NCBI GenBank assembly: GCA_051294905.1
Contig: CM119372.1
Location: 6,884,001 to 6,948,000, forward strand
Direction: 5' to 3'
DNA: 64,000 bases
Origin: Botryllus schlosseri
Lineage: Eukaryota
Below, piece by piece: positions 1,155 through 50,244 of the stretch. The first letter of the stretch is position 1. The number at the start of each line of letters is the position of its first letter. A model generated the notes under the pieces. It ran no database searches, was not told where the DNA came from, and saw nothing but the letters and a program-made list of their open reading frames with translations. The position numbers and the translations under genes were made by a program.

Positions 1155-4100
1155 AGAGAGAAATTTTATTTGTCAAACAGGCAAATAAAATAGAATGAAG
1201 TTGGGTGAAATGTGATGCATAGATAAGCAATGTATAGGAGCTTTGATACAGCAGAGTCATCAAAGTTGAGAAACCAAGGCCAGGAGCATCTTACTACAGA
1301 AGTCGCTGCTCTCAAATCTTTAGATTAATTAACAAAAATAAAAATGTAGGAAACACTCAGGCAGCATCTTTGAAAATAATTAGATAATTGAATGAAAAAA
1401 ATTAGGTCATTGAAATACAATTTCGTGGTAGTTTGAAAGCAGAGAGTCAAACATTGGCAAATTACGGAATTCCGACGATAAGTTATTCCATATGCTGACA
1501 CCAATATATGTGATCGAACAGGTATTTACAGAGAAATGCAGCAGCATCCTACGTTGTCGAATTCCTTACCTCGTCCCATTCGTGAACCATTTTCTCCATG
1601 GCCTTTTCGAGAGAGAATTCTTTGCTGGCCGCTTCGGAGATTGATTCGAACTTGTCAAGATACGAATCCAACTTCATGTCGATATATTTGGACAGTGTCG
1701 AATCCTAAAATAGGCACGTGGAGTTAATCTCTTGTGTTGATGGAACAGGTGTGGATGCAGAGAATCGACCGACCACAGTCTTCAGCACAGCGATTTTGAT
1801 GAACCAACATACCTCTTCAGGTTTGATGGAAAATCCAACAATTTCAGCCAGTTTCGTCCAATGCCTGTCCCTCAATCCCGGGTTGCAAATAGCTTGGATG
1901 AGCGGAATATTTTCCTTGAAGTCTTCCACGTTGGACTTCATCTGAACATAACCGTTTATGTAGAAGCCACGAAATTAACTAATTCCGGGCTTGTCACCAA
2001 CGAATTGCAACATGCTAAGTATAGCCCAAATCCTACATGTATACAAAAATGAACAGAATATTTTCCCAATAATGGTCATTATAAATTAGTGGTTCTCAAA
2101 CATTATAGTCACTCTCTTCAATATTTCATTATATGACAATGAGGGGGCGCAACTAAAAAGTTTGAGAACCACTGTTAGAAATGGAAGAATGCTATTATTG
2201 TTCAGCTTGCGATCGTGCTGTCAGAACTTACTTTAGCTGCGATTGCTTTTGCATTGGCATCTTCCGTAAAAGTTTTCTCCAATTTATACAATCCTCTCCA
2301 AACATTCCCGATTTCCTGTTCCACTTCATCGGGATTGATGACATCAAACTGACCGTGTAACCAATCCCTGTATAATGCGGAATAAGTAAGAAATACTATC
2401 GCATGTACATTAACGTAAATCTATTACATAATTCCTTAGGCGGAAGGAAGGTATGTTGTGGTATCGTTAGTATGGTTCAGGCATGGTATGGCATGTAGAT
2501 TTCACATGATGTAAGATCAAACGTTTTCATTGAACTCCCAAGTTATAAGTTCAATAACCAGAACGGCAACAAAACTGATAACAAGAAACTACAATTCCGA
2601 TTCCAGCATACATCTTTTTAACCTAACATTTTTCCACAGAGCACGTTTTGTTGTGAAGCTGTGCATATGTGAAGTAATATACAAAATCTCAAGACAGTTG
2701 CTACCACATAACAAAAGAACTTTAACTTTGGATGCTCACCCGCTTTTATTATTGAATTCGACTGTCGCCTCGTATAATTTGAGATACGGTTGCAAGGTGC
2801 CTTCGAGCTTCTTCCGCTGCGGATATTGCGATACATCCCACCCGTACGCGTCTTCCTCGGCGTTGAACTGTTCGATCTTCTCCGTCGCGGTGTCGAGACG
2901 TGCTGTAATATTTTGGTATTGCACCGTGATCGGTGATTCAAACTGTATTCATTACCATGGAGCGCCTGGGCTTTCTTGAGATATCTTGGCACGTCGTTGA
3001 GGTCGCCAAACGCGGAAAATTCTTCCAACTGCTTCGTATATCCTTCCAATTCCTCGACGAATCTTTCCCGACGCAACTGATAAATGATGTATCGATTGAT
3101 ATCATCGATAGTGTAGCGCAGGGCAGCCAGGGCTACTCAACTATTTTTAGAGATGGTTCAGTTACAAAATATCAAAATTTGTTGTTCTGTTCGTCACAGC
3201 TAGTAGGAGAATTGGCATTATTTAGAACTGTTTTGAAATCAACGATAATGGATTCAGTTTTCTTCAAAAATCAAGTAAAGACTGATACAGATAGGGTCCG
3301 GTTAAAAACTAAAAAGATTTAGTAGTGTAGCGTGATACATAGAGTTTTCGTTCATGGAATATATTCAAGTTTGCAAGGCTTTTTGTTTGAAGGCAAATAT
3401 GGTTGAATGAAGAAAATGTTATTATTAAAGCAACGCATTCAAGTTTGAGTTTGTTTTTCTGTATTCTGAAACCAGCACCGTGTCTTCAATATTACGTCAT
3501 AACAGCCCAAAATCAGCCAAGAGATCTTAGTACAGGTAATGGCACACTTGGAAAATGATTAGAAATTAGTAAAATTGTGCCCCTACATTATAAATACTCA
3601 GTTTCTCACAGCATCAGTGAACCACTGATGCAATGCAACCCATGACAACAGTAACACCGGTACTGCCATTGGAGATCTTGGCTGCCATTCGCAATATCCG
3701 CAATTGCATTCAAACACAAACCCTCAATCCATCTTGATATTGATGCATCTTCTCGTCGATTATCAACTCATGCTCGTCGAAGACACGCGGCATACGCGAA
3801 TGCCACTTGAAGACCTCGGTGTTGCTTCGAATCTCTCTCGGAGTGAACGACGTGAAATCCACCAGGAAAGCCAATCGATCCTTGCAAACCACCAATTTCT
3901 TTTCCAGCTCCACCATGTCTTTCGATCGAACCTGCAGAATTTTAAAATCAATGAAATCCGCGCATTGCATAAGACACAAGTGAAACTGCAATATATGAAG
4001 CGGCAGATTGCGGATATTCATGGCTTAGATTAGACCTGGGAATGTCTATTGGCAAGAGTTGGCGTTATGTGGTGGCCCTTGGCTATGAACGTAATGCATG

Positions 4101-7100
4101 TCCCGATCTCGAGCAAAATTGGTTAAAAAGCAGTCATCTAAAGGTAGTGATCACTTGTAAACTGCTCGATTCGCTAGTTGGCAGGCTGCTTGCCAGAGTT
4201 TGGAAATCCTGCTATAGATCTACAGTTGTTTTTTATAAAAATTCCGATATAATACAGAACAATCAACTAAAATCTTCATCGAACCAACTCGAATTTGATA
4301 TAAAAATCAAGATTTGACGACCCTTCGAATAGATGTATGTAAAAATAACAGCAACATTGTTTCACCCTCCCTTTAGAATGGGCCAAATCTGGAGAATCAG
4401 CACAAAATAATATTCCCCCTTAATACGATTCTAATTCATGCTTACTCGGATTAAAAAATAAACATACCTTCGCTACATATTCCTGTAGCTCCACAAGCTC
4501 GGCTGTATTAGCTGGTGTTGTTGCAGCTTTCCGAGCTATTTCGTTAAATTCTTCGCATATTCTATAAAAGCAAGGACACTTTTATTATGAATGTTTCAAG
4601 AGTAAATTAGGCCGTATTGATGTCACTTAACATGTGACATCAATACAGTAAAACAATCAACGTCCCTATAAACAGGGTTGGTTGGTATCCCAGCTACTTA
4701 TGATAATCAGTATATACTCTGACATTGTAATTTATCTTGGGTGTATGAGAAGTATCAGGCCGATGAACACAATATGTCAATCAATTCTCAATCCAAGCCA
4801 ACCTCAAAGACTTACATTTGATTCTGTTCTTGATGCTTCTTACTCATGGTGGTCAGCATTTTGTTGGCAAGTTGGTCCGCTCTCTTTGATAAGCTGGCTA
4901 TCAATTCATCGCAATGCAACTCGAACATACCCAGTCTCACCACCTGCAAATTATCATCATGCTGAGCTAATATCACAAAGTTGACCCATTCAGATCATTT
5001 TGCAGTTGAACAATTTTTTTGAAGATAAGAATAAGCCGAATGAATGAAATCTAACCTTTCTTGAATTGAAAGTGATTTCTTCCGCAAGCTTTTGAAATCT
5101 GGTGACTTCGCGAATGTAGTCGTCGAAGGAACTGCTTTCGGACGCCAGGAAACTTTCGACATCCTCTTCCGCCTTTCAATAAAAAAAATAATATTCAATA
5201 TAAGATTATATGAATAGGACTATATTATGTATCAAAGTGCCATAGTCATCTCTCTCCAAAATACAGCATTAAAAATTATGATGAATTTGTACTTGTGTGG
5301 TGTATCCCCGGGGCCTGTGATCGATTGGGGTCCCGTTGACCATACCTTGATAGTTAACAGGCAGCCACAAGGCTGAGCGTAGGGCCTCAAATGTCATAGT
5401 TCATAGTCACTAACAAGAAATCGCTCATTGATATAATGTTGAAATTTTGGAAAAAGAAGTCTATATACATAGATAGAAAGATTCATTGTTTTGTCACACA
5501 AGTGATAATCCGGTAGTGGCCTGGTTACAGCAAGTGACAGCAAGGTTATTAGTGCTTTAATGCCCACCTGTTTGTTTATGAGGAAATGGTATTTGTCATA
5601 TAGTTTTATATGTTCCTTTGGTGCCACACTTTCCTTGGCAACTACTTTTCGAACTTTTGCTTTCACAACCTTCAAAATCTCATCCAAAACAACCGGCTTC
5701 AATGTGGTATTGCTGCCAGACTGAAAAAGACAATGGGACATGGTGATTCCTAATATAAGAAACTTTTAAACAAAAAAGTAGGAATGCAAGTTCTAATAGG
5801 GTTAGATCACATATCACTTGAACAATTTGATACAGATGGTTATAAAATCAAGGAACTAAAACAAATACATGATGAAAGAAAGGTCAAACATTCAGTCCAG
5901 TGAAAAAATTGGTCAGTAAGTAGCATAAACTAACAAATCAATTCTTCAGTCAAGATTATCAAGCCTGCGTAAGGCTCAGTCGTGTGTGGCCTATTTCATA
6001 ACGCAGTCTTCGATTAATGAAAAGGGCTTTTGTTATATCAAGACAAACGAGTACTTCTACAAACACTTCATGAGATCGCCAAATTACACAATAGATGACA
6101 GATCAAATTGCTTCAATTCATGGCTCTGTAACAACTGGATGGAAGCTATTGTTGTGATACTACTAGAAATAGACACGCAATAAACAATTATGTTAAAATA
6201 ATAACATGTAGACGATGTGATTCTATTTTGCCAAGATTTGAGTATAATACAGGAATCGCTGATAACGATACAGAAAATTTACATGAGACATCATCAATTT
6301 GACTACCACAAGTGTAAAATACTGAAAAGATGGCGCATAAAATTGATATGAAAAGAGGATCACATTGTCTTTAAACTTTCTTCCATACCAGTCACGAGAA
6401 TTGTTTACAGTGAAGAATATGGAACTATCACAAATTCAATTTTCCAACACACTGTAATGTAATACCAAATACTTACCCATTCTGAATACAATTTGGTTTC
6501 CACTCTGGGCACAATGCTGACAGCTTTGAGCATGACATCATAAACGTTGATCAGCACCAGTTCAAAATCTGGAAAGTCAGGTTCAAATTTGATCTCTTCC
6601 CCATCTAAAACTAGTCGCACCACAAATCCGGAATGCTCGTGCGCGCGAATTGAGGTCTGAATAAAATTGGAAACATGAATAACATAATCAGTTCCAGACC
6701 AGTTCATAACAGTTCTAGAAGACAACCAAGAATCATGGTAATAGCCCAACTTACACATCTAATGCTAACTGATTGGATTTACGACATTCATAACAAAAGT
6801 ATCACCCGCATCATCCTGTATTACCATTTTCATCAGTGCAAAACACATCCTTTCATTTGTATTATATATACGAGGCACATACATTGTAACCTTACTAGCA
6901 ATAAAGTTTGCAAGTAATTTATTACATCTACATAGAAAAATACAAAGAGATTACTTTATTATGCGTAATGATTTGTCAGGAGTATATTCCAATCAGCTCC
7001 ACTACATTCATAGAAGCCATTCATTGTCAGCATCACAAATGCGCGAATTTTGTGTTATAAATGTATATTGTTATTGTCTTATACCAGAAAAATAGGTTAG

Positions 7101-10100
7101 CCTACACCGTTCTATATGTTATAATAATAACCAACTACTGCTTACCGGAGGCTGACAAAGCAAATTTGTGTAGTCATCAATGGAAAGAAGAGCCAGACTC
7201 TGTAATTGCTGAGTCATCAACGTGGCAGCGCAATTGAAGAAAGACTGAAGTTTGGATTCATTGTGGTTCGACGGAACCTGCTTTCTTTTATTTCCTTGGT
7301 AATAAATATTTTGCACTTCTGGGAACCACCTGAAAAAACATTTTTGGAATGAAATTCTAATACATCGTATTACAGGTTCCGGTATACTTCGAGTATAGCA
7401 ATGGGGTATATAGCATTGCATGTTATAATACACCAATATGAGTATCAGATTCAGTTTGTTAACAATTTGATCATTTCAAAACAACACAAGACTACGATAT
7501 AATGAAAAGATAGGAAGGTGACGAAACGACTTGAAGTAGTCTTTGAAATCAGACTCCCACCTGGGCCTAGGTGATATAAATAAGAGGCATGCACACTGGG
7601 GGTAGAAAAATATGGGATGACGGTTAGTGATGGTAATCTTAAGGGCTGACTAGTATTATCTATAACAATATTTCAATGTAAATTTTGCACACTCAAAGTG
7701 GAGCATTTTATGCATATTTGAGTTAAATTTCAACACAAATAGATGGCACTTAACACTTGGAACTCTTAAACTGCAATCACAGTATAACTAATCAAATGAA
7801 ACATCCAGGGTGTCCAACAGCTGGACAAGTTATCAGCAAAATGTGACATTATTGTGCTTCGTGATGTAATAATGTAGCCACGATATGGGCTGGTTATGGG
7901 CTGACATTTTCAGTTATATCCGTCAATACACCGAATCACCGATATATATACGGGGAAAACTACATACTTTTTCAAGAGCTTATCCTTCGCCGTCTCGATG
8001 TGTCTCAAAACCAAGCCTTGGAACGTTTGCAATTCCATAGATTCCACTTTCTTGTGAAATTCTTCCACGTCAACCAAACGTAAATTTCTGAAAATTAAAA
8101 TCTTCCGTCGCAAATTGATTTAGCTCGAAAACAGACCAATCAACGAACCCGAATGAGACATGCCAAAGGTCGAGCACTGCCATCATGGTGGGATTCGTCA
8201 CATTTAAATTATCTCTCGTTGAATTGAACGCCGACACAAAGGATCTGTGCCACGGCTTTGGAACGACTTCCAGCTCTTCACGGTGCGGGGGTAATTCTTC
8301 CGCCTCCTCCTCTTTCTCTCTCGGGTCACGAAGCACAAAATCCACTGTAATAGAGATCAGAATATCAGCATAGAAACGAGTTGGGGTCCTGGATTTTTCA
8401 CTGTCAGTTTAATCAAAGTGAAGTTGACAGACGGCGAATCCACTTTTGAAATGTATACCGTATATTATGTAGAGAACTTCAGTATGCAATTGAAGATTAT
8501 ATTCATATTGAACAAAAAAAAACGAATGACACTTGTCAGGGGTAATCACCAGGACCTAGTAGAGAAATGAAAAGAACATGGTATATCAACAATCGTGTCA
8601 TCAAATATGACTTTGACGGCATGACAACTCAAATAAATGAGGTGAACAGATGGGTTACGTTGTTAAGTTGTCGACATTGTGACTTCCCTTTAGTTATCAG
8701 ATATATATACTATTTCCCGGCTATCTTTCTTGACGACGTTCTCAAGCAAGAACACTGAAATTAGTATCACATCTCATGTCACAAAACAGATGTCTTCTTG
8801 CAATGTGTCAATTCGTTTAGTTTGATTGAGCAGCGCCTCTTTAAAATGCACTTTACCAATCGCCTTCTTCACAGAAAGTAGATAATCTTCTCTCATCTCG
8901 TCTGATAGAGATTCTATGGACTCGGCGAGATGCTTCAATCGCTTCGGGACCATTTGCATGACGTGATCGAGCCAGATGTCCTCCATGGGTGCGACATGTT
9001 CTGAATTTCAACAATTTAATGATGACTCACGCAACATAGACGGTATTGAAAAGGGCACCTGTGTCTATGCCATTGTGAATGTAATAGTAATATCTCAAAA
9101 TATCTTTTTCCGCATTGGTGGGCGATCCAGGTCTTTGGGACGCGTCGCTACCGGGGCTCTCTGGTCTGCTACGTTCTTCCTTTTGCCTGACCACAAAACA
9201 AGGAGGTCATCTAATTGTCACATATTCATTTTTATTAAACCAATTACTCTTCGTGAACACAGGTATATCATCAATGATGTTATCAAAACAAATAATACTT
9301 GATAATGAAGTATATCCCGCAAAAGAAATTCAAGTTTGATCAATATAAATCAAAAATATTCTTGCCATGAGGAAAGAATTATGAAAATTGAATATTCAGG
9401 GATACATCCCTTCTAGCTGGCCTTACTATTGCATTTGCGGTGCGCAGCTGGTAGACGTGCCATTCTACGACAAACTTTGCATGCCTGATTTCATTTACCT
9501 CGAGTCACAATTGACTCGCGTGATTAAACTTGCATATTCCAGACAGTTCAGAGAGAATATATAGAAAGTTCATAGGTGCATGAGTATCACATTACTACAT
9601 TACTTCATTGCTACTTCTAACATTTATCTCACTAACATCCGAATCTAACCCTCTTCCATATATATGGATACGAAGATTCTATTAATATTTGCACAACCAT
9701 TCTATATTACAGCAGTGTTTATATTTTTTTCTCACACAAACAATATATGTAGGTTATAATTGATAATTTTAGTTGGCAGTGCACAATCTCAATAGCAATT
9801 GAACTTGTCACAGAATATAAGGACATATAACACTATTACTCACATGATGATATTGACAAGTGAACTTCGAAATGCTTCACGGCTTTTCTTTGGGTGTTGA
9901 AAGGAGGATGACGCTCCATTTGCGACAGAGGTTTGCGGTTTTTCTTCAGAAGACCATGTCTTCGCTCTTTGGTATGATTTGCGCTTTTTATTTGGAACTG
10001 TCAGCTCTTTGACAAGATCGATTTGGTCCCTTGATAAAATGAGAATCTCATATTAATGCATACAAATTAAATAATTCCATGCACTCCAATATGATAAGCT

Positions 10101-13100
10101 ACTGACAGTTAAATGCTAAATCCGACTATTCATATAAAAATATATATCTATAGCAGTGGTTCCCAACGTGGGCGATATCGATCCCCCCCCCCTCCCCACG
10201 GGGCGATTTGGCGGCCTAGGGGGGCGAAAATGATGAAGGGGCGATAAGGGGGCAAAAATGGACAAAGGGGGCGAAAATAGCGAAGGGGGCGATGACGCGT
10301 TAAAACGGCTATATTGGAGTCAATTTGGAGAAATGACCTTTTTTTGTTTTTTTTTAGTCAACCCCCGGAAATTTAGTTGCAAAAGTATAAAATTCGACAA
10401 CGAACCGAAAAGTTGGCCTTTTTTTTCAGTCAACCCGCCAATGATTACAGATTGTATACCGATTTTTCGGTTCACAAAATCTGGGGGGCGATGATCGGCG
10501 TTGAGCTTGAAAAGGGGGTGATGAGTAGAAAAAGGTTGGGAACCGCTGATCTATAGGATTAAATCTCTTGTACGTTTCATGATTATGGACAGAGGAGTAA
10601 ATTGCCATCAACTCAAGAGTAAAGTAACCAACGTGCTAAATCCCAACAATGGCATATAGCTTTACTTTAGGGTGGATACGGTATATACGACTGCAAGTGT
10701 GATAGTGGAAGTGTGATGGGTCGCATTTTGATATAATAAAGAAATTCATCTAACAGTGGTATAGTTATCTAATGCAGGTTATTTTCTGAATCCTAATGAT
10801 ACAATCTTCCCTTTCTTGATGCATAGAAAAGTTATACAATTGAATAGTATATTCATATTGAAATGAACCCGAATATTTTCGGCTGACACTCGTCAGGGGT
10901 AATCGTCAGCAACTAGTAGAGAATTCGAAAGAACAGCGTATATCAACAATCGTAACACAAAATATGACGTCACCAGCACGAAATGTTGAATACGAGAGCG
11001 TTCAATGTACTATTTTTAGATGATACACGAACTCTTTTTGTTGACACAGCCTTGGCTGGTGTATTTTGATAAAAGTCGACTCCAAGGCACACAAATGAAA
11101 GTGTGAGCGACCCTTTCCGAGTATGCGAAATCTGTCGTCTCAATAATTTTTCGCACAGGCGGGACTATCCAACAAGTGTTTGCCAATTGCAGAATTTATG
11201 GCCTTTGATTGTTCCGCATCAATCTTGAGCGGGTGAGTTAAGGGTGAGCTTTTCACCGAGCGTGTTTTAATGAATCTAGGGACATGCTAATTTATGCGTT
11301 CCTGCAAGCGCTTTGACGTTCTTCCCACGTAGCCACAATCACAGTGACACTTAAATTCGTAAACTACATTGCTTTGCTGAAGTGCGGGTAGCACGTCTTT
11401 ACGTGTTGCAGGGAGCAGTTGCGTTGTCGTGAAAATCACGTTGGTCTTCACTGTGTCGTAACACTTATTGACCGCTGAAACCAATTGCTTTTCAAAGCGG
11501 GTGGAAATAGGCCCTATCCAAGGTAGATGGATGTAAACATCTTTGGTTGTTCGTTCGGTAGGCTCTGTTGACTTTTCTGCATTGAAATGCGTTACCTTCC
11601 TCTCTATGCCACGGTTGATGACATGTTCAGGGTAACCGTTATCAAGTAAGATTTTCCGGATATTGTCAAGTTCTGAGTTTAGTTTATTACCCGAACATAT
11701 CATCAACGCTCTATGCACGAGAGTACCTATGAGGTTGATTTTTCTGCGTCTAGGACTAAATGAATTCCAACGAAGGTATTGGCCAGTGAATGTCGGTTTC
11801 CGCAAGATTGATGTTTCAAATTTATTGGTATCATGTTTTTCGACTAAAACGTCCAAAAATTACAATGAATTATTTCATTCTTTTTCAATTGTGAATAGCA
11901 GAGCCGGGTGAAGCGAGTTTAAGTGAATGAGAAATTGATCACAGTCTATCTCATTTCTGAATATGACAAAAGTATCGTCTACATAACATCGGTACAACAA
12001 GGGTTTGACGGACACACGCTGGGAGAGAAGCTCGACCTCATAAAATCCTATGAAAATGTTAGCCAAAATAGGTCCCAAGGGAGATCCCATCGATATGCCG
12101 TCTATTTGATTATAGATAACATCGTTAAAGCTAAATTCAACAGAACAGTAGCTGCCTGTAAAAGTTCAACAGAAACTTTACGCGGCATTGATGGTGGTGC
12201 TAGCTTACCGCTATAAAGCGCATTCGCAGAAAAGTTATAGCATGTCAATCATAATTCATAACAACAATGATTGTGAAAACCATGTCGTCTTGCAGCAGCA
12301 TTGCAGCATTTTTACAGTTGTTAATGGATAGCGTCTGAGTTTCTACTCTAAAATTTGTTACCGTACATAAAATGCATACAAATCATGATGAAGTGTTGAA
12401 TTTGTGTTTGACAATGGTCTGGGTTGATACTCTAATCAACATTTGGGATGATTTGGGATTTGGGCTCCATTTGGGATGAAAAAGGATCTTGCAAAATGTT
12501 TAGAGAGCACGTCCAAATACATGTTAAGGATTTAAATTGTAAGGTGTGGAGTTATAAATGTAATTTATTTATGACAGACTGATATTATGGCTCATCATTG
12601 GTCCAACAATGACTCCTGGCATCTCTGCGTTACAATATAAACTCCGTCCAAAGTCACGGTATTATAGTTCAACTCAAACTTGACACTTCACCCTTTTACA
12701 GAATAGTGATCTTTTTCAAAGTATCAGGCGGTTTATGAGGGTTGTGATGCCTTTACCGTGATGATATTTTCATATTTCAGGAATCAGTGTGATAGTAGCT
12801 TTCAATTATTACTGCTTTGAATAAAACTTCAGCACAGGTCAGAAGCCCATTCAAATTTATACGGTTCCAAATTATAATGAGTAACGGTAGATTTGTACAT
12901 TTGTTTTGATTCCAATGGAATTGGATATAGAATATTTTAATCAGCTGTCATCTGATTTCGCACATCACTAAATACAACTGATGTCCAAAATAAGCTATGT
13001 CTGAAAAGGATGATGAAAATTATCAGATCATTACCTGCCAAATGAGTCGCCGGGCGAGCTCCCGTTCAGCACGAACGAAGGAGCTGTACTTGACCATACT

Positions 13101-13267
13101 GGTTTGTTACGTTTTTGTGGCAGTTGAGGGAGGAAACTTGATGTCTGTGGTTCAGACAACTTCACTTTGTTGTTTCTTGTCCTTGGAGTAGGCTGTTTTG
13201 TAATGTAACCCGATCGATTAAACGGTGAAATAATAAGAATAAACTCAGATGTTACCTGGTAATCCAT
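786..13267 (-). CDS. DNAH7: Axonemal dynein heavy chain 7-like, 5' part (20 coding exons; gene continues beyond the left edge)
   Basis: Exons read with GT-AG boundaries and consistent phases: 13256-13267, 13035-13192, 9844-10029, 9059-9186, 8857-9000, 8149-8344, 7968-8087, 7146-7329, 6477-6656, 5568-5720, 5056-5172, 4816-4943, 4468-4561, 3722-3931, 2956-3076, 2740-2902, 2232-2367, 1813-1941, 1570-1704, 786-934. Peptides such as [54 protein letters not shown] and [14 protein letters not shown] match the DNAH7 N-terminus as recalled. No stop codons seen in the spliced frame. Confidence 0.93.
2087..2174. mobile_element. 88-bp hAT (Charlie-like) MITE
   Basis: TIR TAGTGGTTCTCAAAC / GTTTGAGAACCACTG; flanks TTATAAAT / TTAGAAAT (7/8 TSD). 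Confidence 0.65.
7470..7650 (-). mobile_element. 3' UTR fragment of a CR1/L2-type LINE (same family as 27457-27960)
   Basis: Shares CACAAGACT..AATGAAAAGATAGGA..CGAAAC..CCTAGG..AAATAAGAGGCATGCACACTG with 27505-27620. Confidence 0.65.
8470..8630 (-). mobile_element. Old, diverged copy of the Penelope-like terminal repeat
   Basis: TGACACTTGTCAGGGGTAATC..CTAGTAGAGAA..AAAGAACA..GTATATCAACAATCGT aligns with 10860-10980; the ribozyme core is damaged. Confidence 0.65.
10154..10548. mobile_element. hAT MITE
   Basis: TIR CAGTGGTTCCCAAC / GTTGGGAACCGCTG; perfect 8-bp TSD ATCTATAG; internal GGGGCGA repeats. Confidence 0.85.
10837..12227 (-). mobile_element. 5'-truncated Penelope-like retroelement (RT + GIY-YIG endonuclease, disrupted) in DNAH7 intron 2
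   Basis: RT motifs [11 protein letters not shown] and YVDDTF (11875-12090); thumb and [23 protein letters not shown] (11287-11856); frameshift and stop present; 12-bp TSD AGAAAAGTTATA (10825-10836 / 12228-12239); hammerhead in the 3' terminal repeat. Confidence 0.92.
10867..10910 (-). ncRNA. Minimal type-I hammerhead ribozyme (Penelope terminal repeat), copy 1
   Basis: Minus strand reads GCUGACGAUU-ACCC-CUGACGA-G-UGUCAGC-C-GAAA-AUAU-UC-GGGU: core CUGANGA/GAAA/UH, stem I ACCC:GGGU, palindromic AAUAUU stem III. Confidence 0.8.
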
Positions 13268-13551
13268 CTTAGTGAATCACAGTATCTTCACGTAATAGTT
13301 ATCATTACTCACTTTTTGAAGAACACTCACTATAAACTGAAAACATAAATGGATATGTTTTATCATGAGGAGTACTATTAGGCTACATTGTTACTCCTAT
13401 CTAAAACGTGGTACTGGGGTGATGAAATTGCTGTCAAACTCAGCGATTAAAATCAATGATTCGTTCAACTAATTACGTAGCTTAAAGCATTCAACGATAC
13501 ATTATGGCTGAGCGAAACACTGACTTTGCGAGTGCAGATCTCGCTGCCACG

Positions 13552-14986: not shown

Positions 14987-15891
14987 TATGTTATAGGTAT
15001 ATAGAATAACTGTAGTACTGTAGTGTAGCTGTGAAGAATCACATCGTCCTCGATGGCAACGAACAACTTGGCTTCATCAACTTTAGACTTCTGCTCCTAT
15101 CAACGTCACGTATGTTCAAGGAGAATGTACGATAATTGATGATTGAATGAGGACACCCGATTACGCTCATAATTTGAATATGTTTTCTTGATAGGTATTT
15201 GAACTACAAATATTGTGCACAACATATCTTGGAGGATGAAAAATCACCTTTCACATCATGTGAATATTTGTCGAGAACCACAAAACGAAAATGCCCAAAT
15301 CCTGCTCTTCGTCCAAGAAAGCAAAACAGGTTACTGGTGTGGTTACCTGTTCGATCGTAGCACAATTTAAATGTTATCGTTGCTTTATCAGTTTGCCCAT
15401 TTTTTGCTCTGACCACCTTCATTAACTTATTGTAAAAGAGAAGCATCAGAAGCAAAAAAGGAAATTGCGAAGAAAACGAAAAATTCAGAAAGCATCTCTT
15501 GTGTAAGAATTTAGCAATTGTTATACTATTCCAAAGAATTTCTGAAACAATTTTAGTGATGATTTGATCAACTAGTAACAGCGCAATCCCCCCATAGGGC
15601 TTATAACTTTAATTGGGTTTATCCACATAAATTTACGAAGTCCCGGACTGCATCCTTCTGATTTCAATGGACATTAGGGCTATAGGCTAATTATCTCTTA
15701 GCTCAGGTGACCTGATATACCCGTAAAGTAGATAATGCATTAGAAAATCCAGACTTTATGAATCATATTGTAGTGTAGTTGGATCGGTTTCAAGTGATAT
15801 ATAGCCCTCTGTACTGTCCTCGAATTAATAATCTAACAACTTTATGGTACGCAAGACATATGTAATAATATATGTTACATGAAGTTGCTCA

Positions 15892-16063
15892 ATTAAATAG
15901 TATATTCATATTGAATATTCAATATAATACAATGTTCTTTCCAATTCTCTACTAGTTGCTGACGATTACCCCTGACGAGTGTCAGCCGAAAATATTCGGG
16001 TTCATTTCAATATGAATATACTATTTAATTGTATATTGAAGTTCTGTACCTCCAAGAAGCTCT
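15892..16063 (+). mobile_element. Short Penelope terminal-repeat insertion carrying hammerhead copy 2 (15958-16001)
   Basis: Identical 44-nt ribozyme core; short inverted head (15892-15915); 12-bp TSD TGAAGTTGCTCA (15880-15891 / 16064-16075). Confidence 0.85.
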
Positions 16064-17513
16064 TGAAGTTGCTCAGTAATCTTATACATGGTATATATAT
16101 ATATATATCCCAGTTATTGATTTCTTGAGTTTTAATGAATTATATATCACAAAACATAGGCCTACGAAGGAAGATTATATCAAATATGTAGCTTATTTAC
16201 TGGAAAAGGGCATTGGAATCACTCACCAAACTGAATCTAGACTCGACCAACTTGAAAAACTCATTTCGGGAGATGTGAACTAGTCAATATTTCCATTTCT
16301 ACTCGGGCGGCACAATTTTTCAACACATACCGTAGGTTGCACACCCCGCTGACATATTTGATTCATTCAGTCTGATTCAGTTGAGTCGGTTCTTACTGAA
16401 AGTTCAAACTTTCAGTAGATCAGAATCCGCGAAAAGACAGAAGCTAGTGAATCAGCTTTATAAATACTCTGAAGAAACACCGAAGACTACTGATGGACAG
16501 ATGAATCATGAAGACTCTGGTAGGACTTTTCATAACATCCACGAATAATTTGTTTTGCTAATTCTGTTTATGATGGCGCAGAATCTAATGTCGAAGACAT
16601 TCAGCGTCCGATAAATGACGACTGGCCGCTTGAAAACCCCGCCTCCATCGGTACTGATGCAGATTGGGATGATTTTGATCCTGTCAACAATGAAGTCTAC
16701 GAACCGCTGAGATATGCAGGTATGCTGCGGCTCGTATCTGCCCATGAGAATTGTCTATTAGTCAAACGCTACTTTTTTAAATATCTGCAAAAATGTGTCT
16801 CTTCCACTTGTAGGGTTCTGGTACTTGAAAGTCATCAAAAATTTTTCTTTTCGTCATTCTTAAATCTAATTGCTGTGTCCGGCTGTAGTCAACTGCATCA
16901 GCAATTGTATCTATTATGATTTTCACTAATCCCATCAGCCAATCAATGATTAATTTTGGTCCTTGCCAGGAGTCTAGATACAAATTTTGCCCGGTCATTG
17001 TCCAACTTACAGCCTGTGATGACCTTGAAAAAATAATGGTGTCTGTAATATCATGATTCTTGAAAAATTCCTGTCTACTTCCTTGAATTTTCTGTCCTAA
17101 ACCGACTCTTTTTGGTGATGCCACTACGATTATGCTTTAATCCCAATGTTCGTATATTCATATTCTCCTCTTAACCTCGCGACTGTCATATTTACAGACG
17201 TCTTAACACCCGAGGAGGTGGTGGCTACCGCGCAGAGTAAACTAATTCGTCTTCAGTCGTTATATATTGAACAGTTCAAGCGACTGTTCCACCTGCTGGA
17301 GGAGAGGAGACGGCAGTAGGCCTATCTTCAAGATCTCAAAAGTGAGATCAAGGAAGAAAAGGCAAACTCGGGTAATCTACGCAAACTTTCGCAACATATT
17401 TCATTGTCAATTTAATTGCTGGCAATTGTAACTTTAGCAAGTGTAAATGTGGAACAAGTTACGATTTTCATCGTTTGTAAACAGAATTGGTCAACGTCAT
17501 CTCAACATAGCTA

Positions 17514-18924
17514 CTCGTAAACCGGGGTAACTTTGGACACTAAGCACTAAAAGATTTCAATGGTTATTGATGGAAACGGGTTGCCGCTGGATGTCCAATT
17601 CTTTTTCATGAGGCAACAGTACCACAAGTAGTCTCAATAAAAGGTTGATTCATTTCACTACCAGATAAACTTGACCCAACATTGATAAATTAATGGCGGG
17701 GGTCAATTTCATGAAAATTGATAACCATTAAACTTCTTACAACCAAACATAGATATCATGTGATTCATAGATTCAAAACTTGGCAGCAGATACCTCTACG
17801 TAGTCTTAATCCATGGAAAAAATCTTGGTGGGCTCACCCTTGGATCAATACAAGAAAATGTGATGTTCAAAGTTACCCCGTCAAATTTTATCCGAACGGG
17901 GTAATTTTGGACAATGAAAAATGTAATATTAGAGCTCTGGAAAGTGGCTGCTTCATCTGTGTCAAAGTGTACCGTCAACTATATTCCTTATGACCGGCCT
18001 GATGGCTTCTTAAAATGGAATGAGAAGGTTAATAAATTAAGAGTTTGCCAAAACATGAAAAAATGGGTAGGCAATGAGCTGAGAGATTGTAATCGGGTGT
18101 AAGCTACTTCAAAGACTTACACATACTCCTAAAGATGCGCCTGCTGATTATGGGATATCGTAAATTACTACAAATATATCCATCAGAGGACATAGGAGAG
18201 GGAAAGTGTATCTTTTAAAGAACTGTAATAGATTTGAAATCGGCAATAAATCACGGTAACATGCTTAATGTTTGCTATCGATCGCTGATACTGCTAGTGG
18301 GATACCCCTTATCGCCATATATTGTTTATAAGTCCCAATTGAAGAGTTTCTTGGAGGTACAGAACTTCAATATACAATTGAACAGTATATTCATATTGAA
18401 ATGAACCCGAATATTTTCGGCTGACACTCGTCAGGGGTAATCGTCAGCAACTAGTAGTTGTCCCAAGTCCCAATTGGTGAAGGCATGAGGGAAAATTGAG
18501 ATAAGGGATGAATAAGGGGGCATTAGCCTTCATAACCTACCTAATTTTTTTTTTTTTGGGGGGGGGGATTAGGTGAAAATCATACCACAGGGTAGACATA
18601 CTATTTTCTTTCAGTATTAGCCACTGCTCTCATCAACTCTTACCAAAGAAGCCTCATTTACGAGGCTTCATAAACAATAGAGGGTAAAGACATACAAAAA
18701 ACTACATTGCCCAAAGCTATCCCACATGCAGGGGTAACTTTGGACACGGATAATTTACAAAAATAAGGTACTTATTTATGACCATGAAGATTTTGGATTA
18801 GGTAGTTCTAATCTTTGCTCCATGACCCCTAAAAACACAAAACTTGCGCCCCCTACACCCTAGCATTTCCAAGATACAAAGCGGAAATGTTGAAAATTGT
18901 CCAAAGTTACCCCGGTTTACGGGG
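17514..18924. mobile_element. Non-autonomous Tc1/mariner-pogo-like element
   Basis: TIR CGTAAACCGGGGTAACTTTGGACA / TGTCCAAAGTTACCCCGGTTTACG, TA on both flanks, internal repeats of GGGGTAACTTTGGACA. Confidence 0.7.
18342..18464 (-). mobile_element. 123-bp Penelope terminal-repeat insertion carrying hammerhead copy 3 (18405-18448)
   Basis: Identical ribozyme core; 12-bp TSD AAGTCCCAATTG (18330-18341 / 18465-18476). Confidence 0.85.
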
Positions 18925-37823: not shown

Positions 37824-40800
37824 GATTTTTTTAATTCAAAATAATCATGGTGCTTGGATTTGGAAAGGATTGAGACACTGCAGTTTTTCTTTCTTGAATG
37901 CGTTGTCATTATTCTACCGTAGGCCTATATGCTAATTCAAAGTTTGTTGTTACAGTGCGAACTTCATGGTGTGAAATTTTATTGTTACATACTTTACTTT
38001 TTGAATATGTTTGAATCCCTTCAATGTACCGATTACTGTTGATAAGAAGCACACAAAATATATTATACGTATCCCTGCAATGGATGTTTTTATAAAACTT
38101 ATTTAGCAGTAAAATGAGGCAGAAACGAATTCAAATAAAAATCAGTCAACTTATAGGGAAGTTGGTTTCGCCCCAACGATTGTCCTTTGCCACCTTTATG
38201 ATGTGGATATCTTTTGTGGTCCATAATACAAAATGACCCCATGAAGTCTTGGCTGCTTCCATTCCGGCCTGGATTTGATGCCAATATTCATGGTTGATTT
38301 TCAATGAACCACATTGATCCAAATATGGAGAAGTATCTCTTCCACGTTTCTCAAACATTATATCATTAATAGTTTTATTGCGGTGAATCCATGGACACTT
38401 GATTTCTAATAGCCCTCTTTCGCCACTAGAAGTGCTTATAATTCCATCTGGGCTGCACCCAAGATAACCACAAGGGAATAGAAGCAATCCAACCTTCATA
38501 ATAGAGTTACCGGTGTAGTCTTCATATGCTTTTATCGCGACATCCTCAATTCATGCATCTGACCCCACATTATTGCACTTTTGCAGGATAAATTATATTC
38601 ACCACAAAGCATTCTGAATAGGGACTCGGGGTAGACACCAGAGCAACCATGTCTGTCGAAAGCTTTCATCACCCGTCCAAAGTTGCTTCCAGTCAGTCTG
38701 TAACTGCGCATTCGACCCCATAATTGTGATCGAGATTGTAGCTTTGTCTCTTCAGCAACGATGGTAATTTGATCCGGGTCTACACGGCACTTATTCAAAA
38801 ATTCATTCTTGTAAATTTTGAATAGTGTGAAGAGATCAGATATATTTTATGTTATGGTGACAAATGAAGATACATGTGATAGTGGCTCCAGACCTGTAAT
38901 CCATTTTGTTGGGCACGTAGTGTCAGCTTTCATTATATGTGTTTGGAAGGATTTTCTATCTTCCATGTCAAATTTTCTTGGCAAGGCACTGTAACATTTT
39001 TTGGATGAAGGAAATAACTCTTTCATCGGCTGTACGATTTCTTTACATGCCCTTCTTGGGTGTGTAATCCACGAATTTGGCAGATCGGTTTTAGACATGC
39101 CATTTTTGTTGACATAGATCGCAACTGTGGCCATGTGGCTGCAAATCCATTTGCCCCGCTGGCATTCACACGTTGCACTACTAATGCCCCCAGTTCCATC
39201 TAAATCAGAGGTCTCAAACTCAAATGTGCTCGCGGGCCAGTTTTCCAGTTTTGACGACGCCGCGGGCCGCAGCCTTTATAGGGGTATTCTATGTCTTTCC
39301 AAGTAGGCCTTATTTGGCGGGAATAAATTGTTCTATTGAAAGTAAGCCGATCCACCGGACTACTGACAATAAACCCACATCATCAAAATGTGATTTACTC
39401 TTGTATCAATTTAGGACTGACACGAAAAGAATCATCACATTTATAACTATTTGAATAGAATTGTTGTTGTATTGATAAATATTAATTATAAGATATAGAG
39501 ACCATATGGGCGGACAAATGTATGATGCCATCATAAAAGCTATCGGGTTATAATTTTTCAGCTTCTATGCATATTTTGAATTTAACAGATTGATAATACA
39601 GACTGATATGATATCAAAACATTTTCAAGTTGATCATTGCAATTCCAATCCAGGATACGAGTATACTTCTGATAAGTAGGCTAGGGTATTAATCTCATGG
39701 CCAAATCTCTTCAAATATAGGAGCAGAATTTTTTTTAATATAATAGAAATATATTAATGGATGTGTCCTAGTGATTTAAATGTCGGAACGCCGAACGGCC
39801 CATTGCTGTGACATCGTCGGAGTGTACCACTACGGTACTCGCTACCTTTAAGTGACCTTAATAACATGGTTTAGCGACCGAAGATGTAACTAACAGATTG
39901 CCGATGGTTGCCATAACTACTTGCTCAGTTAGCGAAATACCAAGCTGCGACCTTCTGATCTATTACTATTACCCTGACACCCGATTAGTTTTTGCGTCCA
40001 TGTTTCTAACAAATTCACGGCATCCTGCGTCATTTCCATTTTGCCATCGAGTTAGCCCGAGTCTGAGTTATTCTAGGAAAGGTCGCGTCCAAGTCCAACT
40101 CACAAATTTCAGTCACCAATCGTCTAAGGGTCAGGTTTTGTCATCATGAATTGGAAATGTGGGGAAATAGTGAATCTTCCACTGCATGGTGGCGTTTGCA
40201 ATTGATGTGATAGTGAAGTTTGATGAATAGTTCAAGTATAGAAAGTGACTATGGAACGGAAACTCCCGTTTTCCCATTGTTAGGTCACGCCTGACTGAAT
40301 CTAGCGGATTTGGACAACCGAACAATCGTAACGAATGTAGGAGATGTAATATTCTCCAGTTTCGAGACAATTTCGGTTAGATGAGAGCGGTAGCCGCGGC
40401 ATTTAGGCGCAGAAAGCCAACTGCAACACATCGAGTCGTTGTTTATTCATGCCTTGTGAATAGGGTGAGTGGTTTTGCAACCAATACTTATGGACAGAGG
40501 ACAGTATTCATCGGAAATCTGGAGTTTATAAACGATGAAGAGAGGCAGTTTGTGTTATTGTGTGATAAAATCTGGCCGCAATGTGCAATCTATTTGCAAT
40601 TAGCAATTTACATATACCATTTACTGGATTTTTTCGCAGGAACAACGATATAGTATCATTCGTTTAGCCTGTAAAGTCTTACTTGTTATAGAAATCAGTA
40701 AATCACTGTGTGGCCGCAAGAACTGCAATACGAAGTATTGTACCGGTACTCCATATCACCATCACAAGACCCGTCGTCGCTCGCTCCCAAAGAAAAGAAT

Positions 40801-41133: not shown

Positions 41134-44100
41134 ATGGCTCCATCAAATTGTTGTGTTCCTGAGTGCAACTTTCGAAAGCCATCTAAAAATCGAATTGGTC
41201 TTTTTACTGTGCTTCGCCCTGAATTTGCAGCCAGCGAGGAAGAAAAACACCACAGAGAAATGCTGCACAAGTTTGTGTACTCAGTTAGGGGTGAGACAAA
41301 GAAAATCATTGCAGACAAGCTTTGTAGAGAAATGTGAGTCTGATAGAATGGTTACCAGAAGGGGTTATTGTTCAGTAGTTGTTTTCCTTCATGTAGGATG
41401 GCAATCTGCGAGCAACATTTCAGTCAAAGTGACATTATAATCAAAAAGTCCAGGAAAATGCTTAGGATCGGAGCGCTGCCAACTGAAAATCTCCCGAAAA
41501 ATTTGACTAGTGTGTTCAGGAGTCCACATCGCAACCCCCCTAGCAAGAGGAAACAATTACCTCCAAAACAGGTTTACAGAACCTTTGAAAAACTTCACAA
41601 GGCAGCAATGAAGATACAAGTAGAGTCAGGTGGTGTCCCTAGGATATACATATAATGTGCAAGTGAATGGCTAACATTTGATCATTTAGAATATTGGGTG
41701 TTTTACGAAAAAAAGGGCAGGTTGATTGGACAGTATGAAGATGATGAAGATTCTGGTCTGGCACCAAGATTGAGGTGAATTTGTTAGTCATTGGTGTAAT
41801 AGTGTGTCAGGTAGCGAAAAAATTAATAAGTGTCCGTGTAAGTAGCCTGAAATAGATTGAAAAATGACTGCAATTATGAAGTATTATTTGTTCAGGATAA
41901 GCATTGACCTGCAATCAGGGAACAACCAACTTCACTGCTTTGGCTGGGCAGTGGATTTGAAACAATTTTTTGAGATGGATATATGTTACATAGAACTACA
42001 TGATGTCATCAGTAGGTTGCGAAAATTCACTGAAGTAACTGTGATAATGATGTTGAAATACGACATATTTAGAGCAATTGGAGAAACTAAATGTATGTTC
42101 TGGAGTCGGATCAGAATTTCAGGACACCAAATCTCACCCTGTGGTCGGAAGAATGGGTAGTCACGAACTAAAAGTGTCTGTGATTCATCGCTGCGAGACA
42201 TGCCGTATTTTAGGTACAAACCTGCGTTGGAAAGGTCAGTGTAACTGAGCTCTGTGACCTTGATTACCCACATTCTAGTTGATTCGCTGGATATTTGTGA
42301 TGGCTGCTCAGCATTCATCAAGGCGAATAACCAAAATAGCTTGGACGAAACGGTAGAGGTGGATGAGCAGGTACATTTGACGGTTCAGGTATTTATTGCA
42401 GACCACACACATAACTGGCAGCAACATGCAACTAATAAGGTTAATTTATAGGCGATGGTTGATACTGAAAAAGGCAACATGAATGAGTTCTTGCATCAAT
42501 TATTTCTTGATGACATGATCAATTCCCAGAGGTCAGGTAATGGTCGCCGCTATCATCCTGACATTCTGAGATGGTGCATTGAGTTGTACTCGAGATCCCC
42601 AGCAGCCTATGCACACATTAGAAGCAGCAATGTTCTCCAATTGCCGAGCAACCGCACCATTCGCTCCTACAGGTAGATAAAAAAGCAGATCATCATATTA
42701 TATAGAGAATTGCATACTTCTATTGTTCACAGAAACTGTATCCCACCTAGTCCAGGCATAAATAAATTGGCACTGGAGCAAATTGCAGTCAGAAAAGAAG
42801 AGGGGGAAAACATGACCGGCTTTATATGTTTGGACGAGATGAAAAGTAAAGCTTAGTAACAGTATTAATTGGCTAAGACTTGTAGATATATTAATAATAT
42901 ATGACAAATATTCAATGAACAGTTAAAGAGAATCTTGTCTTGCGAGAAGGCAAACTGGTGGGGCTCGTTGATCCCATGTCAGTGACTGAAGAAAATAAAA
43001 GGAATGAGCTAGCCAGTAACATTTTAGGTAAGGATTTATGGCTTGTATAGCATTATTAAAAACATGGGGGCCAATATAAATATATATTTTATTTAAAAGT
43101 ATTTTACGGAAGGACCGTAACCAGAAAGGTTTCTGTGCCAATAGCATGGTACGCCACACGGTCTATGACAGCAGGACGACTTGCCTCATTGGTTTGGAAG
43201 AACATCATTGCATGTGAAAAGGCCGGGCTACAAGTTCATGCTTTGATATGTGATGGACATCCAACCAACAGAAAGATGTTTCGCATCATTAGTCAAGGTC
43301 ACAAAATCACTATGCGAAGCAATCTTATGGCACATAATCCACTAGCTGTTCATCGACCGATTGCCTTGCTGTCAGACCCCCCTCATTTGCTGAAGGTAAT
43401 TTAGGTAAAATTTACTCTACACATAGTGTTTAATTGTTGCTTTTCATGGTTAAGACTGCTCGTAATTCCTTATATAATTCAAGAAAGAATGGTTCAAAGG
43501 AAATGATAGATGTTCAAGGTCGTCCGATTGTCTGGACGGATATTTCAGATCTGTACAAGCGCGAATCTCATTCAATGCTGAGTGAAAGCTTGCTGAAAAA
43601 AGTACACGTTGAACTGACGCCATATAGCAAGGTAACTGTGACATGATCGATCAGTGTCAGTAAATTATCATTTCTGCTTGTCAAACAGATGAATGTTGGT
43701 TTGGCTCGTGCTGTTTTAAATGAGCGGGTTGGTAAAGTGTTGAGTAAGGTACCAAGAGCAGAGGGCACGGCGGATTACATACTTAATTTCGCCAAGTATG
43801 TCCTATAAACTTATGACATATGATATGTAGTATACCTGATATTTCATCTTTGTAGATGGTTTTCAATTGTAGACTGCTCTTCAAAAAATCCAATCAAAAA
43901 TCTGGATGATAAACGCATCTTTTGGCTTGAGACATTTGCTGACAGCCTTGCGCAGTGGCATGTAAGTGGGATGCAACAGATTGCATGAAAGTTCACTTAT
44001 ATAATTGTATGTTCAGGATAGTCTTTCAGGAGACTGCAAGAAACTGGTAGCAATGCCAACCCTTGAAGGGCTTTGCTTCACATCACGAAATTTTGCGTGC

Positions 44101-44433
44101 CTTTGTAGGCGTTTGCTTGATGGAAAGTATTTAAATTATGTCGGACTTCATTCATTCTCACAGGATGTATTGGAGGCCTTTTTCGGAAATGTGGTGAGAA
44201 TATATTGTCAGCTCCGTTCTCTCCTATCTTTTAGAATTCTTATATCCAATAAACAGCGACAACATGGGGCGCGTTGTTCCAATCCAGACATCAATCAAGC
44301 TGCCTATGCCATCCAACACCTAACTGTAAGAAAAGGAATCAAGAAATTGAAAGGCGGCAACACAACATTTGGTGATAAAAATGCATGGACGGAATTGAAT
44401 GAGGAACCCCTGCAAAAACGCATGAAAAATTGA
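41134..44433 (+). CDS. P-element/THAP9-family transposase, multi-exon, apparently intact but short at the C-terminus
   Basis: THAP domain (CCVPEC..ICEQHF..GALPT), RRYHPDILRW..SPAAY..LPS, catalytic motifs CLDEMK, ICDG, DPPHLLK-TARN, KMNV, SQDVLEAFFG-RQHG..NP; spliced through many short (mostly ~50-75 nt) GT-AG introns; AATAAA near 44448. Some middle exon boundaries (41900-42450) are uncertain. Confidence 0.88.
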
Positions 44434-44553
44434 TTGGAATTGCATCAAATAAATACACAGATTGCATTTCTGCTACTCTACTCTCACCTAGTCAGAGTTC
44501 ACGCATCAAGTATCTAATTATGTCACTTAACTATGACCTCTTAATGAATTGGT

Positions 44554-45444
44554 TTATTTTTTCAAATCAGTTCTGAGACTACGAGAGCCGCTGCCTGCTG
44601 TGGTACTAGATTTGAATTTTCTCAGCCTATCAATCAATTTCCTTGAGAAACTATATGCCAGTGTCTTTATGTAGAGCAGAGTCATTACAAATACTACCTC
44701 TTTCACGCTTTCAGAGGTAAACGGGCCGGAGTCAGCGAGGTAATCGACAAAATTGTAAAAAAATCTAGATGAAGAAATACACTTTTTCAAGTGCTCTACA
44801 TTGATTTCCGCAGCAGGCTTGGAAAACTCCCTACTAGCCTCTACAAATATGTTTTGAAAGAAAGATTGTACTTCCATAGACGGATAAATGAGTTTGATAT
44901 TCTCCAGCAGTGGTATCAAAGTGAACTGTGGAGAGTCTGATTCCAAATTCGATATAATGTCATGAAGTTGAGGTGATCTGAGAAAACGGGTTTTCACACG
45001 CCGCAAAACAAAACCTCCAATAAACTCGATGATATCTGCCTCTCTTGCTGAAATGCTGGCATGTGCAACATGGTCAACAGGCCTCGATGCAACAATACTA
45101 TCAATTATTTCTAGCAAATGTAATGCAGCATCTGCAATTTCGGGAACCGGCTGAGAAAAACACTTGAAAATTCTGCTACCCTCCATCAAATCAGAATACT
45201 GCTCCATAATGGCCTCTAAATTTCCAGTTGTTTTAAATCTTTCCTGCCAGTCTGTAATCAATGTAGCTCCATAGTGTGATAAAAGTGACAAATCAATACT
45301 GTGAGAATCGGGTTCCGATGCTGTCAATGATAAATCCCTGAACTTCTGATATTCTTCAGCGGAATAATCTATATCCAAACTATCAGTCTCAATTTCAACT
45401 AAAATTGTCTCGGGCACACTCAACATCGCATCCGTTGTTGACAT
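44554..45444 (-). CDS. Second P-element gene, ~296 aa, resembling the P-transposase C-terminal domain
   Basis: Uninterrupted ORF from ATG 45444 inside the TIRs; motifs EADIIEFIGGFVLRRV, LIYPS, LLYIKTLAYSFSRK and a basic tail SRSLRTDLKK. Confidence 0.72.
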   Translation of the reverse strand: MSTTDAMLSVPETILVEIETDSLDIDYSAEEYQKFRDLSLTASEPDSHSIDLSLLSHYGATLITDWQERFKTTGNLEAIMEQYSDLMEGSRIFKCFSQPVPEIADAALHLLEIIDSIVASRPVDHVAHASISAREADIIEFIGGFVLRRVKTRFLRSPQLHDIISNLESDSPQFTLIPLLENIKLIYPSMEVQSFFQNIFVEASREFSKPAAEINVEHLKKCISSSRFFYNFVDYLADSGPFTSESVKEVVFVMTLLYIKTLAYSFSRKLIDRLRKFKSSTTAGSGSRSLRTDLKK

Positions 45445-50153: not shown

Positions 50154-50244
50154 CTAGAAAAGCTTGCCTGTTACTTTTTAACTGTATGCTTTTTTTCACT
50201 TCTCTAGTACCTATGTATGTAGTGCATGCTCAAACTAAAAGGCT

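Follow-up and report, generated by a model that had tools for sequence, protein, structure and literature searches.

A Penelope-like retrotransposon hammerhead motif with a conserved loop-leader pseudoknot in place of helix II in Botryllus schlosseri

Genes and Mobile Elements at the Locus

The window, i.e., the whole stretch of 64,000 nucleotides that was analysed (Botryllus schlosseri, GenBank assembly GCA_051294905.1, contig CM119372.1, positions 6,884,001 to 6,948,000 of the forward strand), bears exons of a DNAH7-like axonemal dynein heavy chain gene on the minus strand (1708-13276), which were identified by PDB sequence searches, the homolog search having been empty. The plus strand also carries a 725-codon frame without interruption (50239-52416), which encodes antistasin-like, astacin, TSP1 and FG-GAP domains and, unlike the nearby dynein gene, is intronless. 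A YqaJ-like recombinase frame with a neighbouring cysteine-rich frame lies at 38146-39275 (minus strand), and the fragments at 43060-45621 are, we assume, transposase-like. Two pairs of long inverted repeats, 28298-28561/30774-31037 (96% over 264 bp) and 60085-60682/61914-62511 (99% over 598 bp), are probably the ends of DNA transposons, and the latter pair encloses a palindromic Penelope insertion (Table 1).

The initial annotation of this DNA reported five identical copies of a 44-nt motif, and all five are exact, at 15958-16001 on the plus strand and at four other places; a decayed sixth copy and a partial one had been overlooked (Table 1). As fragments of a single retrotransposon family, the five copies owe their identity to recent copying, and that identity provides no independent support. 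The proposal that the motif is a hammerhead of the terminal repeat (pLTR) of a Penelope-like element (PLE) agrees with its position between the stop of one 860-codon frame and the AUG of the next. In intact relatives, the tandem units measure 2,683-2,693 bp, the frames have 857-860 codons, and the motif lies ~100 bp past each stop. In Pfam, the element protein matches RVT_1 (E 8e-9), and GIY-YIG is matched only by the homolog P0012 (59% identical), the GIY-YIG motif of the window's own family having been spotted by eye. The element, which we take to resemble Poseidon, thus displays what is expected of an endonuclease-positive PLE, i.e., a single frame with reverse transcriptase (RT) and C-terminal GIY-YIG, together with tandem units, an inverted 5′-truncated copy and an optional tail of 30-40 bp. 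PMC8557442 gives tandem units as a mark of PLEs, along with inverted truncated partners and an optional tail.

The 15958 copy lies in a stump of ~175 bp, in which 141 bp of pLTR and tail and a 26-bp inverted piece of the tail are accompanied by a 12-bp target-site duplication. The truncated element at 10833-12232 is probably situated in sense within an intron of the dynein gene, the flanking exon matches being firm downstream (E 8e-16) and weak upstream (E 1.9).

Table 1. Insertions of the Penelope-like family in the window and parts of the motif copy at 15958-16001.
Feature	Position	Strand	Basis or remark
Old decayed pLTR copy, broken core	8469-8624	-	77.9% over 163 bp
5′-truncated, stop-interrupted PLE (RT motifs, thumb, GIY-YIG) ending in pLTR	10833-12232	-	84.6% to L061 over 1410 bp; motif 10867-10910
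Left copy, 12-bp target-site duplication of the 15958 insertion	15880-15891	+	Partner 16064-16075
Short inverted tail piece at 5′ junction of the 15958 insertion	15890-15915	-	blastn, 26/26 identical
Pseudoknot 5′ strand (leader)	15958-15963	+	Partner 15981-15986; 59/60 cells paired, 10 representatives
Invariant G and short linker toward stem I	15964-15967	+	G in 10/10 rows; pairing with 15980 not conserved
Stem I 5′ strand, partner 15998-16001	15968-15971	+	4 contiguous bp in window copy
Hammerhead core C3-A9	15972-15978	+	Sequence
Single pair G10.1-C11.1 (G15979/C15987) closing 7-nt loop	15979-15987	+	Bridging base 15980 and knot 3′ strand 15981-15986
GAAA box (15988-15991), palindromic stem III AAUAUU (15991-15996), C17, predicted cut after C15997	15988-15997	+	Sequence
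Stem I 3′ strand, 14-nt leader, AUG 16012-16014, first codons (tail)	15998-16067	+	Same sequence opens the 860-codon frames of L061
Right copy, 12-bp target-site duplication of the 15958 insertion	16064-16075	+	
Solo pLTR stump with 12-bp target-site duplication	18339-18457	-	Motif 18405-18448
Decayed partial copy, motif 3′ half and tail	46267-46335	+	85.5% over 69 bp
Palindromic insertion, two tail-out pLTR stumps	61593-61841	.	Motifs 61629-61672 (-) and 61735-61778 (+)

Architecture and Covariation of the Motif

The earlier parsing of the 15958 copy as a hammerhead proved correct (Table 1). The order of a type I hammerhead (C3-A9, G12-A15.1, U16.1-H17) is present, with a stem I that is open-ended and paired, and the core pattern is matched 12 times in the 64-kb window vs 4.9 expected, and 12 matches were reached in 0 of 100 shuffles. 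Rfam scans of the window and of seven loci returned 10 and 4 matches, respectively, none of which was to a hammerhead model at E up to 10; these models do not cover a build with a 1-bp stem II and a knot. All 11 representatives compared, one for each family, retain the catalytic positions, and variants affect C3 and G8 only: two related knot-bearing families have U3 cores, U3-A8 in this genome and U3-G8 in a metagenome (loci L298, L299; L187, L195). Helix II amounts to a single base pair in 11/11 representatives; this G10.1-C11.1 pair is G-C in 9/9, and its loop, in which U, G or A serves as the bridging base, pairs in a 6-bp knot with a strand located 5′ of helix I.

Stem I comprises 2-8 contiguous bp over the 11 representatives, with double changes at the two core-proximal pairs, and the stem I cells that appear unpaired in the covariation alignment come from one row (L172), the 3′ half of which is shifted. 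Stem III is an exact palindrome in the window copy and in 7 of the 11 representatives and is near-palindromic in the rest. The self-duplex of the window palindrome is worth -0.2 kcal/mol vs -4.3 kcal/mol for the variant of most other families, and cleavage as a dimer through stem III is plausible by analogy with other elements.

The initial annotation also put forward a pseudoknot of 7 bp between loop II and the 5′ leader, and covariation across families backs the pseudoknot itself and six of its pairs. Over nine representatives, 54 of the 54 cells of the 6-bp helix are paired, the score is attained by none of 500 shuffles, and in slid registers 13-37% of cells are paired; with a tenth representative added, 59/60 cells are paired, slid registers reach 22-37%, and double changes occur at five of the six pairs. 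The register is the same in 10/10 representatives, and a single position can show up to four pair types (leader/loop GCUGAC/GUCAGC in the window, elsewhere ACUAAC/GUUAGU, ACUGGC/GCCAGU, UGACGC/GCGUCA or UCUAGC/GCUAGA). The pair counts do not include the eleventh representative (L210), whose helix is 5 bp and whose loop is 6 nt. The proposed seventh pair (G15964-U15980) was rejected, as it is G-U in only 5/9 representatives and a mismatch in 4/9, and the first loop base (15980) is therefore better read as a one-base bridge. In pseudoknot geometry, one base is able to span a 6-bp helix.

The representatives were hand-picked, with the common intact variant of each family being favoured and decayed siblings with mismatches (e.g., L145, L174, L177) being excluded. 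The pairing itself was not selected for, since the patterns used to find families demanded core spacing only and the metagenome loci were found by protein. The shuffle control ignores the relatedness of the families, a concern that is eased by the divergence of their proteins, which are 47-66% identical to that of the window's family, and by a tree that is mostly star-like within the group. The motif is real, and its structure is well supported. The knot's final C-G pair and the G that follows it (15963-15964 and 15981) are invariant in 10/10 representatives, and a tertiary or protein contact is a possible reason. The linker after the leader consists of G and 0-4 nt; a conserved helix IV was not seen by eye, a leader hairpin being drawable in some families only.

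Distribution and Phylogeny of Knot-Bearing Families

The exact 44-mer occurs 2,539 times in the 495-Mb genome, and its reversed-pattern control 0 times. Three looser core patterns with a G-N-C spacer, non-overlapping by design, have 6,913, 1,380 and 1,669 matches vs 2, 15 and 63 for their controls, i.e., ~10,000 matches together, decayed copies included. The pattern with a spacer shorter by one base has 62 matches vs 16, mostly deletion copies and background. Several deletion copies are devoid of the stretch between the two repeated core boxes, which leaves a shortened motif; losses of this kind seem to be promoted by the 13-nt direct repeat. Another locus (L017, G000:C6:27492547-27492984) carries, after a full copy, six 77-bp tandem repeats of the motif 3′ half and tail.

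Patterns fixing the core spacing only revealed five further families in the B. schlosseri genome. A protein search of metagenome contigs gave 80 loci, of which the 31 closest were screened, and those that bear the motif represent five more families. In viral contigs, one tight pattern had 2 matches, neither with the leader knot, which says little on phages. In the protein tree, the 10 knot-bearing rows stand on one side of a branch with 100/100 support and the 11 rows with a long helix II on the other; the L134 family is absent from this tree as it has no usable protein, and the outgroups are the rows returned by the search, all ~30% identical, rather than named references. A single origin of the knot-bearing clade is likely, as judged from these sequences.

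A hairpin resembling the histone 3′ stem-loop (RF00032, E 5e-6 and 6e-4, just below the gathering score) was observed at L171:296-340 (+) and at L188:1319-1365 and 1385-1420 (+). In two metagenome families it lies past the predicted hammerhead cut and ahead of the AUG, and one compensatory change is seen when the two are compared; the second copy in L188 lies inside the coding start and may be a duplicated coding piece. A regex search found none in the other loci.

Cleavage and Proposed Mechanism

Four raw RNA runs (3-6% of each was read) showed neither a listed pile-up of starts or ends at the cut site nor a strand-specific drop in depth across it. Depth over the motif was ~400-2,000 on both strands, 67-98% of the placed reads continued into other sequence, and hardly any reads fell within the 5′ part of the element frame, which indicates that this RNA samples solo stumps in host RNAs. 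Such a pattern fits inert monomers and has no bearing on tandem transcripts. Among the listed records that hold the stretch, none is recorded as RNA. Searches for genomic 5′ junctions at or near the cut site gave 86 and 107 matches, without a cluster by eye; copies that begin just ahead of the cut were few, and most of the 86 keep part of stem III. As no RNA ends were observed at the cut site, we infer the hammerhead activity of the motif, including site-specific self-cleavage, from its likeness to known hammerheads.

We consider it probable that the motif is the pLTR hammerhead of an endonuclease-positive PLE clade in which a knot has replaced helix II, and that it cuts tandem transcripts into unit-length RNA. 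Helix II has shrunk to G10.1-C11.1, six of the seven loop bases pairing with a leader whose end lies 8-11 nt ahead of the core. The knot helix would stack on G10.1-C11.1 in the place of helix II and be tied to the far end of helix I, the stacking and the lateral position of helix I being modelled on the crystal structure reported for the PK hammerhead (PMC11300833). As stem III is too short to serve in a monomer, cutting would call for two motif copies on the same RNA, e.g., a tandem transcript; a second copy is likewise described as necessary for the stem III of other PLE hammerheads (PMC4209133; PMC6765202), from which it may also be surmised that the element's own protein is perhaps required for cutting. 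The cut would release RNA of ~2.7 kb, a unit length, that starts 14 nt before the AUG. The distance from the predicted cut to the AUG, which is observed, was obtained by script in seven families (14, 21, 10, 19, 21 and 3 nt, and 52 nt in the seventh) and by eye in the remaining four (about 14, 21, 24 and 41 nt). The solo stumps, which number in the thousands and include that at 15958, would be by-products of reverse transcription starting 28-74 nt past an uncut motif, and are probably inert.

Comparable builds are reported to be fast: a type II hammerhead with a 1-bp stem II and a 6-bp knot cuts at >1.2 per min, with compensatory mutants rescuing activity (PMC3088659), and the PK hammerhead at 16 per min (PMC11300833). 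Mycovirus hammerheads with a 1-bp helix II before an AUG are described as promoting translation (PMC13725137), and on that precedent a similar role for the PLE cut before the AUG is a fair guess, no more.

A fuller account, which we put forward tentatively and regard as doubtful, joins these elements. A clade of animal PLEs would have evolved a knotted 44-nt hammerhead devoid of helix IV independently of the microbial PK hammerhead. Fast once a second copy supplies stem III, this hammerhead would act as a coincidence detector, cutting tandem transcripts and no others, at 3-24 nt ahead of the AUG in most families; the cut would license cap-independent translation of the RT, and the roughly ten thousand solo copies in host RNAs would stay uncut.

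Alternative Explanations

There is a real, if lesser, possibility that the fold is mainly a binding or positioning signal for the RT/endonuclease that fixes a downstream start of reverse transcription, cutting being slow or dispensable. According to the available account of the anole Poseidon element, its hammerhead cuts only with protein, its catalytic mutants still insert, and RNA-seq ends are not reported at the site (PMC11167929). All the copies studied here similarly run through an uncut motif, with no RNA ends at the site, and they end at two distances: among 58 distinct copies in 60 loci chosen by protein or core pattern, 27/58 have their 3′ end at +25 to +40 and 22/58 at +60 to +74 past the cut site. 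This bimodality, which also speaks for the main reading, is what two internal starts of reverse transcription would give if the template were uncut, by analogy with the two internal starts past the motif described for anole Poseidon (PMC11167929). The retention of the catalytic positions in every representative, however, is unneeded for pure binding. The two roles are compatible with each other.

The knot could also make the hammerhead fast enough to be cut as a monomer, as the PK hammerhead is. This reading, which would agree with the ~20-fold higher speed reported for the PK hammerhead relative to the extended form (PMC11300833) and with the occurrence of two metagenome families having a 3-bp stem III and a small loop, is unlikely in view of several observations. 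In a monomer, the stem III of the window copy would be 1-2 bp long with a loop of 2-4 nt; ~10,000 core matches are spread across the genome, an intact copy is probably in sense within the dynein intron, and the site is spanned by RNA reads from both strands.

Less likely still is that the leader is the leftover of a 13-nt duplication of the core box acting as an on/off switch between the active knot and an inactive hairpin. The initial annotation had suggested that the duplicated box allows an alternative inactive fold, and the box is indeed repeated in the leader of three families, one of them from another genome. As a general feature the suggestion was not sustained: the leader differs in most families and tracks the loop rather than the core, and the duplex between leader and loop is stronger than the core-hiding hairpin in 11/11 representatives. 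A conserved switch hairpin was rejected on the ground that this hairpin is worth -0.8 kcal/mol or weaker in 7/11 of them, the other four values being -5.1, -6.0, -3.1 and -1.7 kcal/mol. In the window's family (-5.1 kcal/mol), in which the box recurs in the leader and the loop is able to pair with the core itself, the hairpin is part of the minimum-energy nested fold, which is no better than shuffles (z -0.97), and on the strength of this folding model it may matter locally there.

Finally, complementarity of leader and loop by chance or by plain inheritance from one ancestor, which finds some room in the relatedness of the families and in the occurrence of runs this long in 1-12% of random 17-nt windows per loop, is very improbable and has been largely refuted by the covariation, given the constant register and the changing pair types.

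Significance of a Knotted PLE Hammerhead

Metazoan PLE hammerheads have been described as lacking tertiary contacts and cutting poorly. In this clade mutation can break and repair a Watson-Crick contact, which gives a clean way to find out whether PLE hammerheads are built to be slow or are awaiting a dimer or a protein. Such a very compact knotted hammerhead would also serve structure work and engineering. The motif exposes a blind spot, too: it is missed by Rfam, as it would be by descriptors demanding a helix II hairpin, despite its abundance in this genome, and elements now catalogued as core-only may merit re-examination.

Comparison with Known Hammerheads

The combination of a 1-bp stem II with a 6-bp knot in a PLE is absent from the 56 rows of Fig. 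S3 in PMC4209133 and from File S2 in PMC8557442. Nor was a knotted PLE hammerhead found in the literature covered, which included PMC10085705, PMC7936874, PMC6155905 and bioRxiv 10.64898/2026.07.22.740005; the study of small PLE hammerhead variants by Lünse et al. (2017) lies outside this comparison and may already show the build. So far, and within that literature, the knotted build had been described only outside animal jumping genes.

Among PLE hammerheads, which have been known since 2014, the metazoan minimal type has a helix II hairpin of 3-8 bp in all the rows of that figure (Cervera and De la Peña, 2014; PMC4209133), and all those in File S2 of Craig (2021) have a helix II of at least 3 bp (PMC8557442). 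The motif shares with the former, as presented in PMC4209133, the type I order, the location in a pLTR, the short helix I, the short palindromic helix III, the G10.1-C11.1 pair, the coexistence of many families per genome and the U3-A8 variant. The hammerheads of PMC4209133, however, usually have a base between A9 and G10.1 and no tertiary contact recognised, whereas here that base is absent, helix II is 1 bp and a 6-bp knot is present; the pLTR location and the short palindromic helix III of a minimal PLE hammerhead were thus found, and its 3-8 bp helix II hairpin with an unpaired base was not. The anole Poseidon hammerhead (PMC11167929) is likewise a PLE hammerhead near an AUG, with two 3′ ends past the motif and no reported RNA ends at the cut, but it has an ordinary stem II and a cut 26 nt inside the frame, whereas the predicted cut here precedes the AUG.

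Two other groups of hammerheads are partly similar. The metagenomic type II hammerhead shown in Fig. 4 of Perreault et al. (2011; PMC3088659) also has a 1-bp stem II and a 6-bp knot, needed for speed, that links the strand leaving stem II to the stem I side; its own features are the type II permutation, the pairing of loop I with a 3′ tail and a prokaryote-type context, and it is not dimer-type. The chrysovirus and fusarivirus hammerheads, as described in PMC13725137, are type I, with a helix II of 0-2 bp and a cut a few bases before an AUG (7 nt once). They differ by a long helix III, the absence of a reported knot, rates of ~0.01 per min or less and their hosts, RNA viruses of fungi and plants.

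The PK hammerhead (Zhan et al., 2024; PMC11300833, PDB 8YDC) has, like the motif, A9-G12 together with a single G10.1-C11.1 pair, a 6-bp loop knot that replaces helix II and a partner strand 5′ of helix I. In its published structure, however, the partner strand is the loop of a helix IV that is joined to helix I by an A-rich minor-groove triplex, and the knot consists of four standard pairs with A:A and G:A caps, whereas here there is no conserved helix IV, the linker is only G and 0-4 nt, all six pairs are standard and stem III is a palindrome of the dimer type. Having no helix IV, the motif would work like a PK hammerhead and yet is not a member of that class; by its place it is a PLE hammerhead, although an atypical one since it does not have their long helix II.
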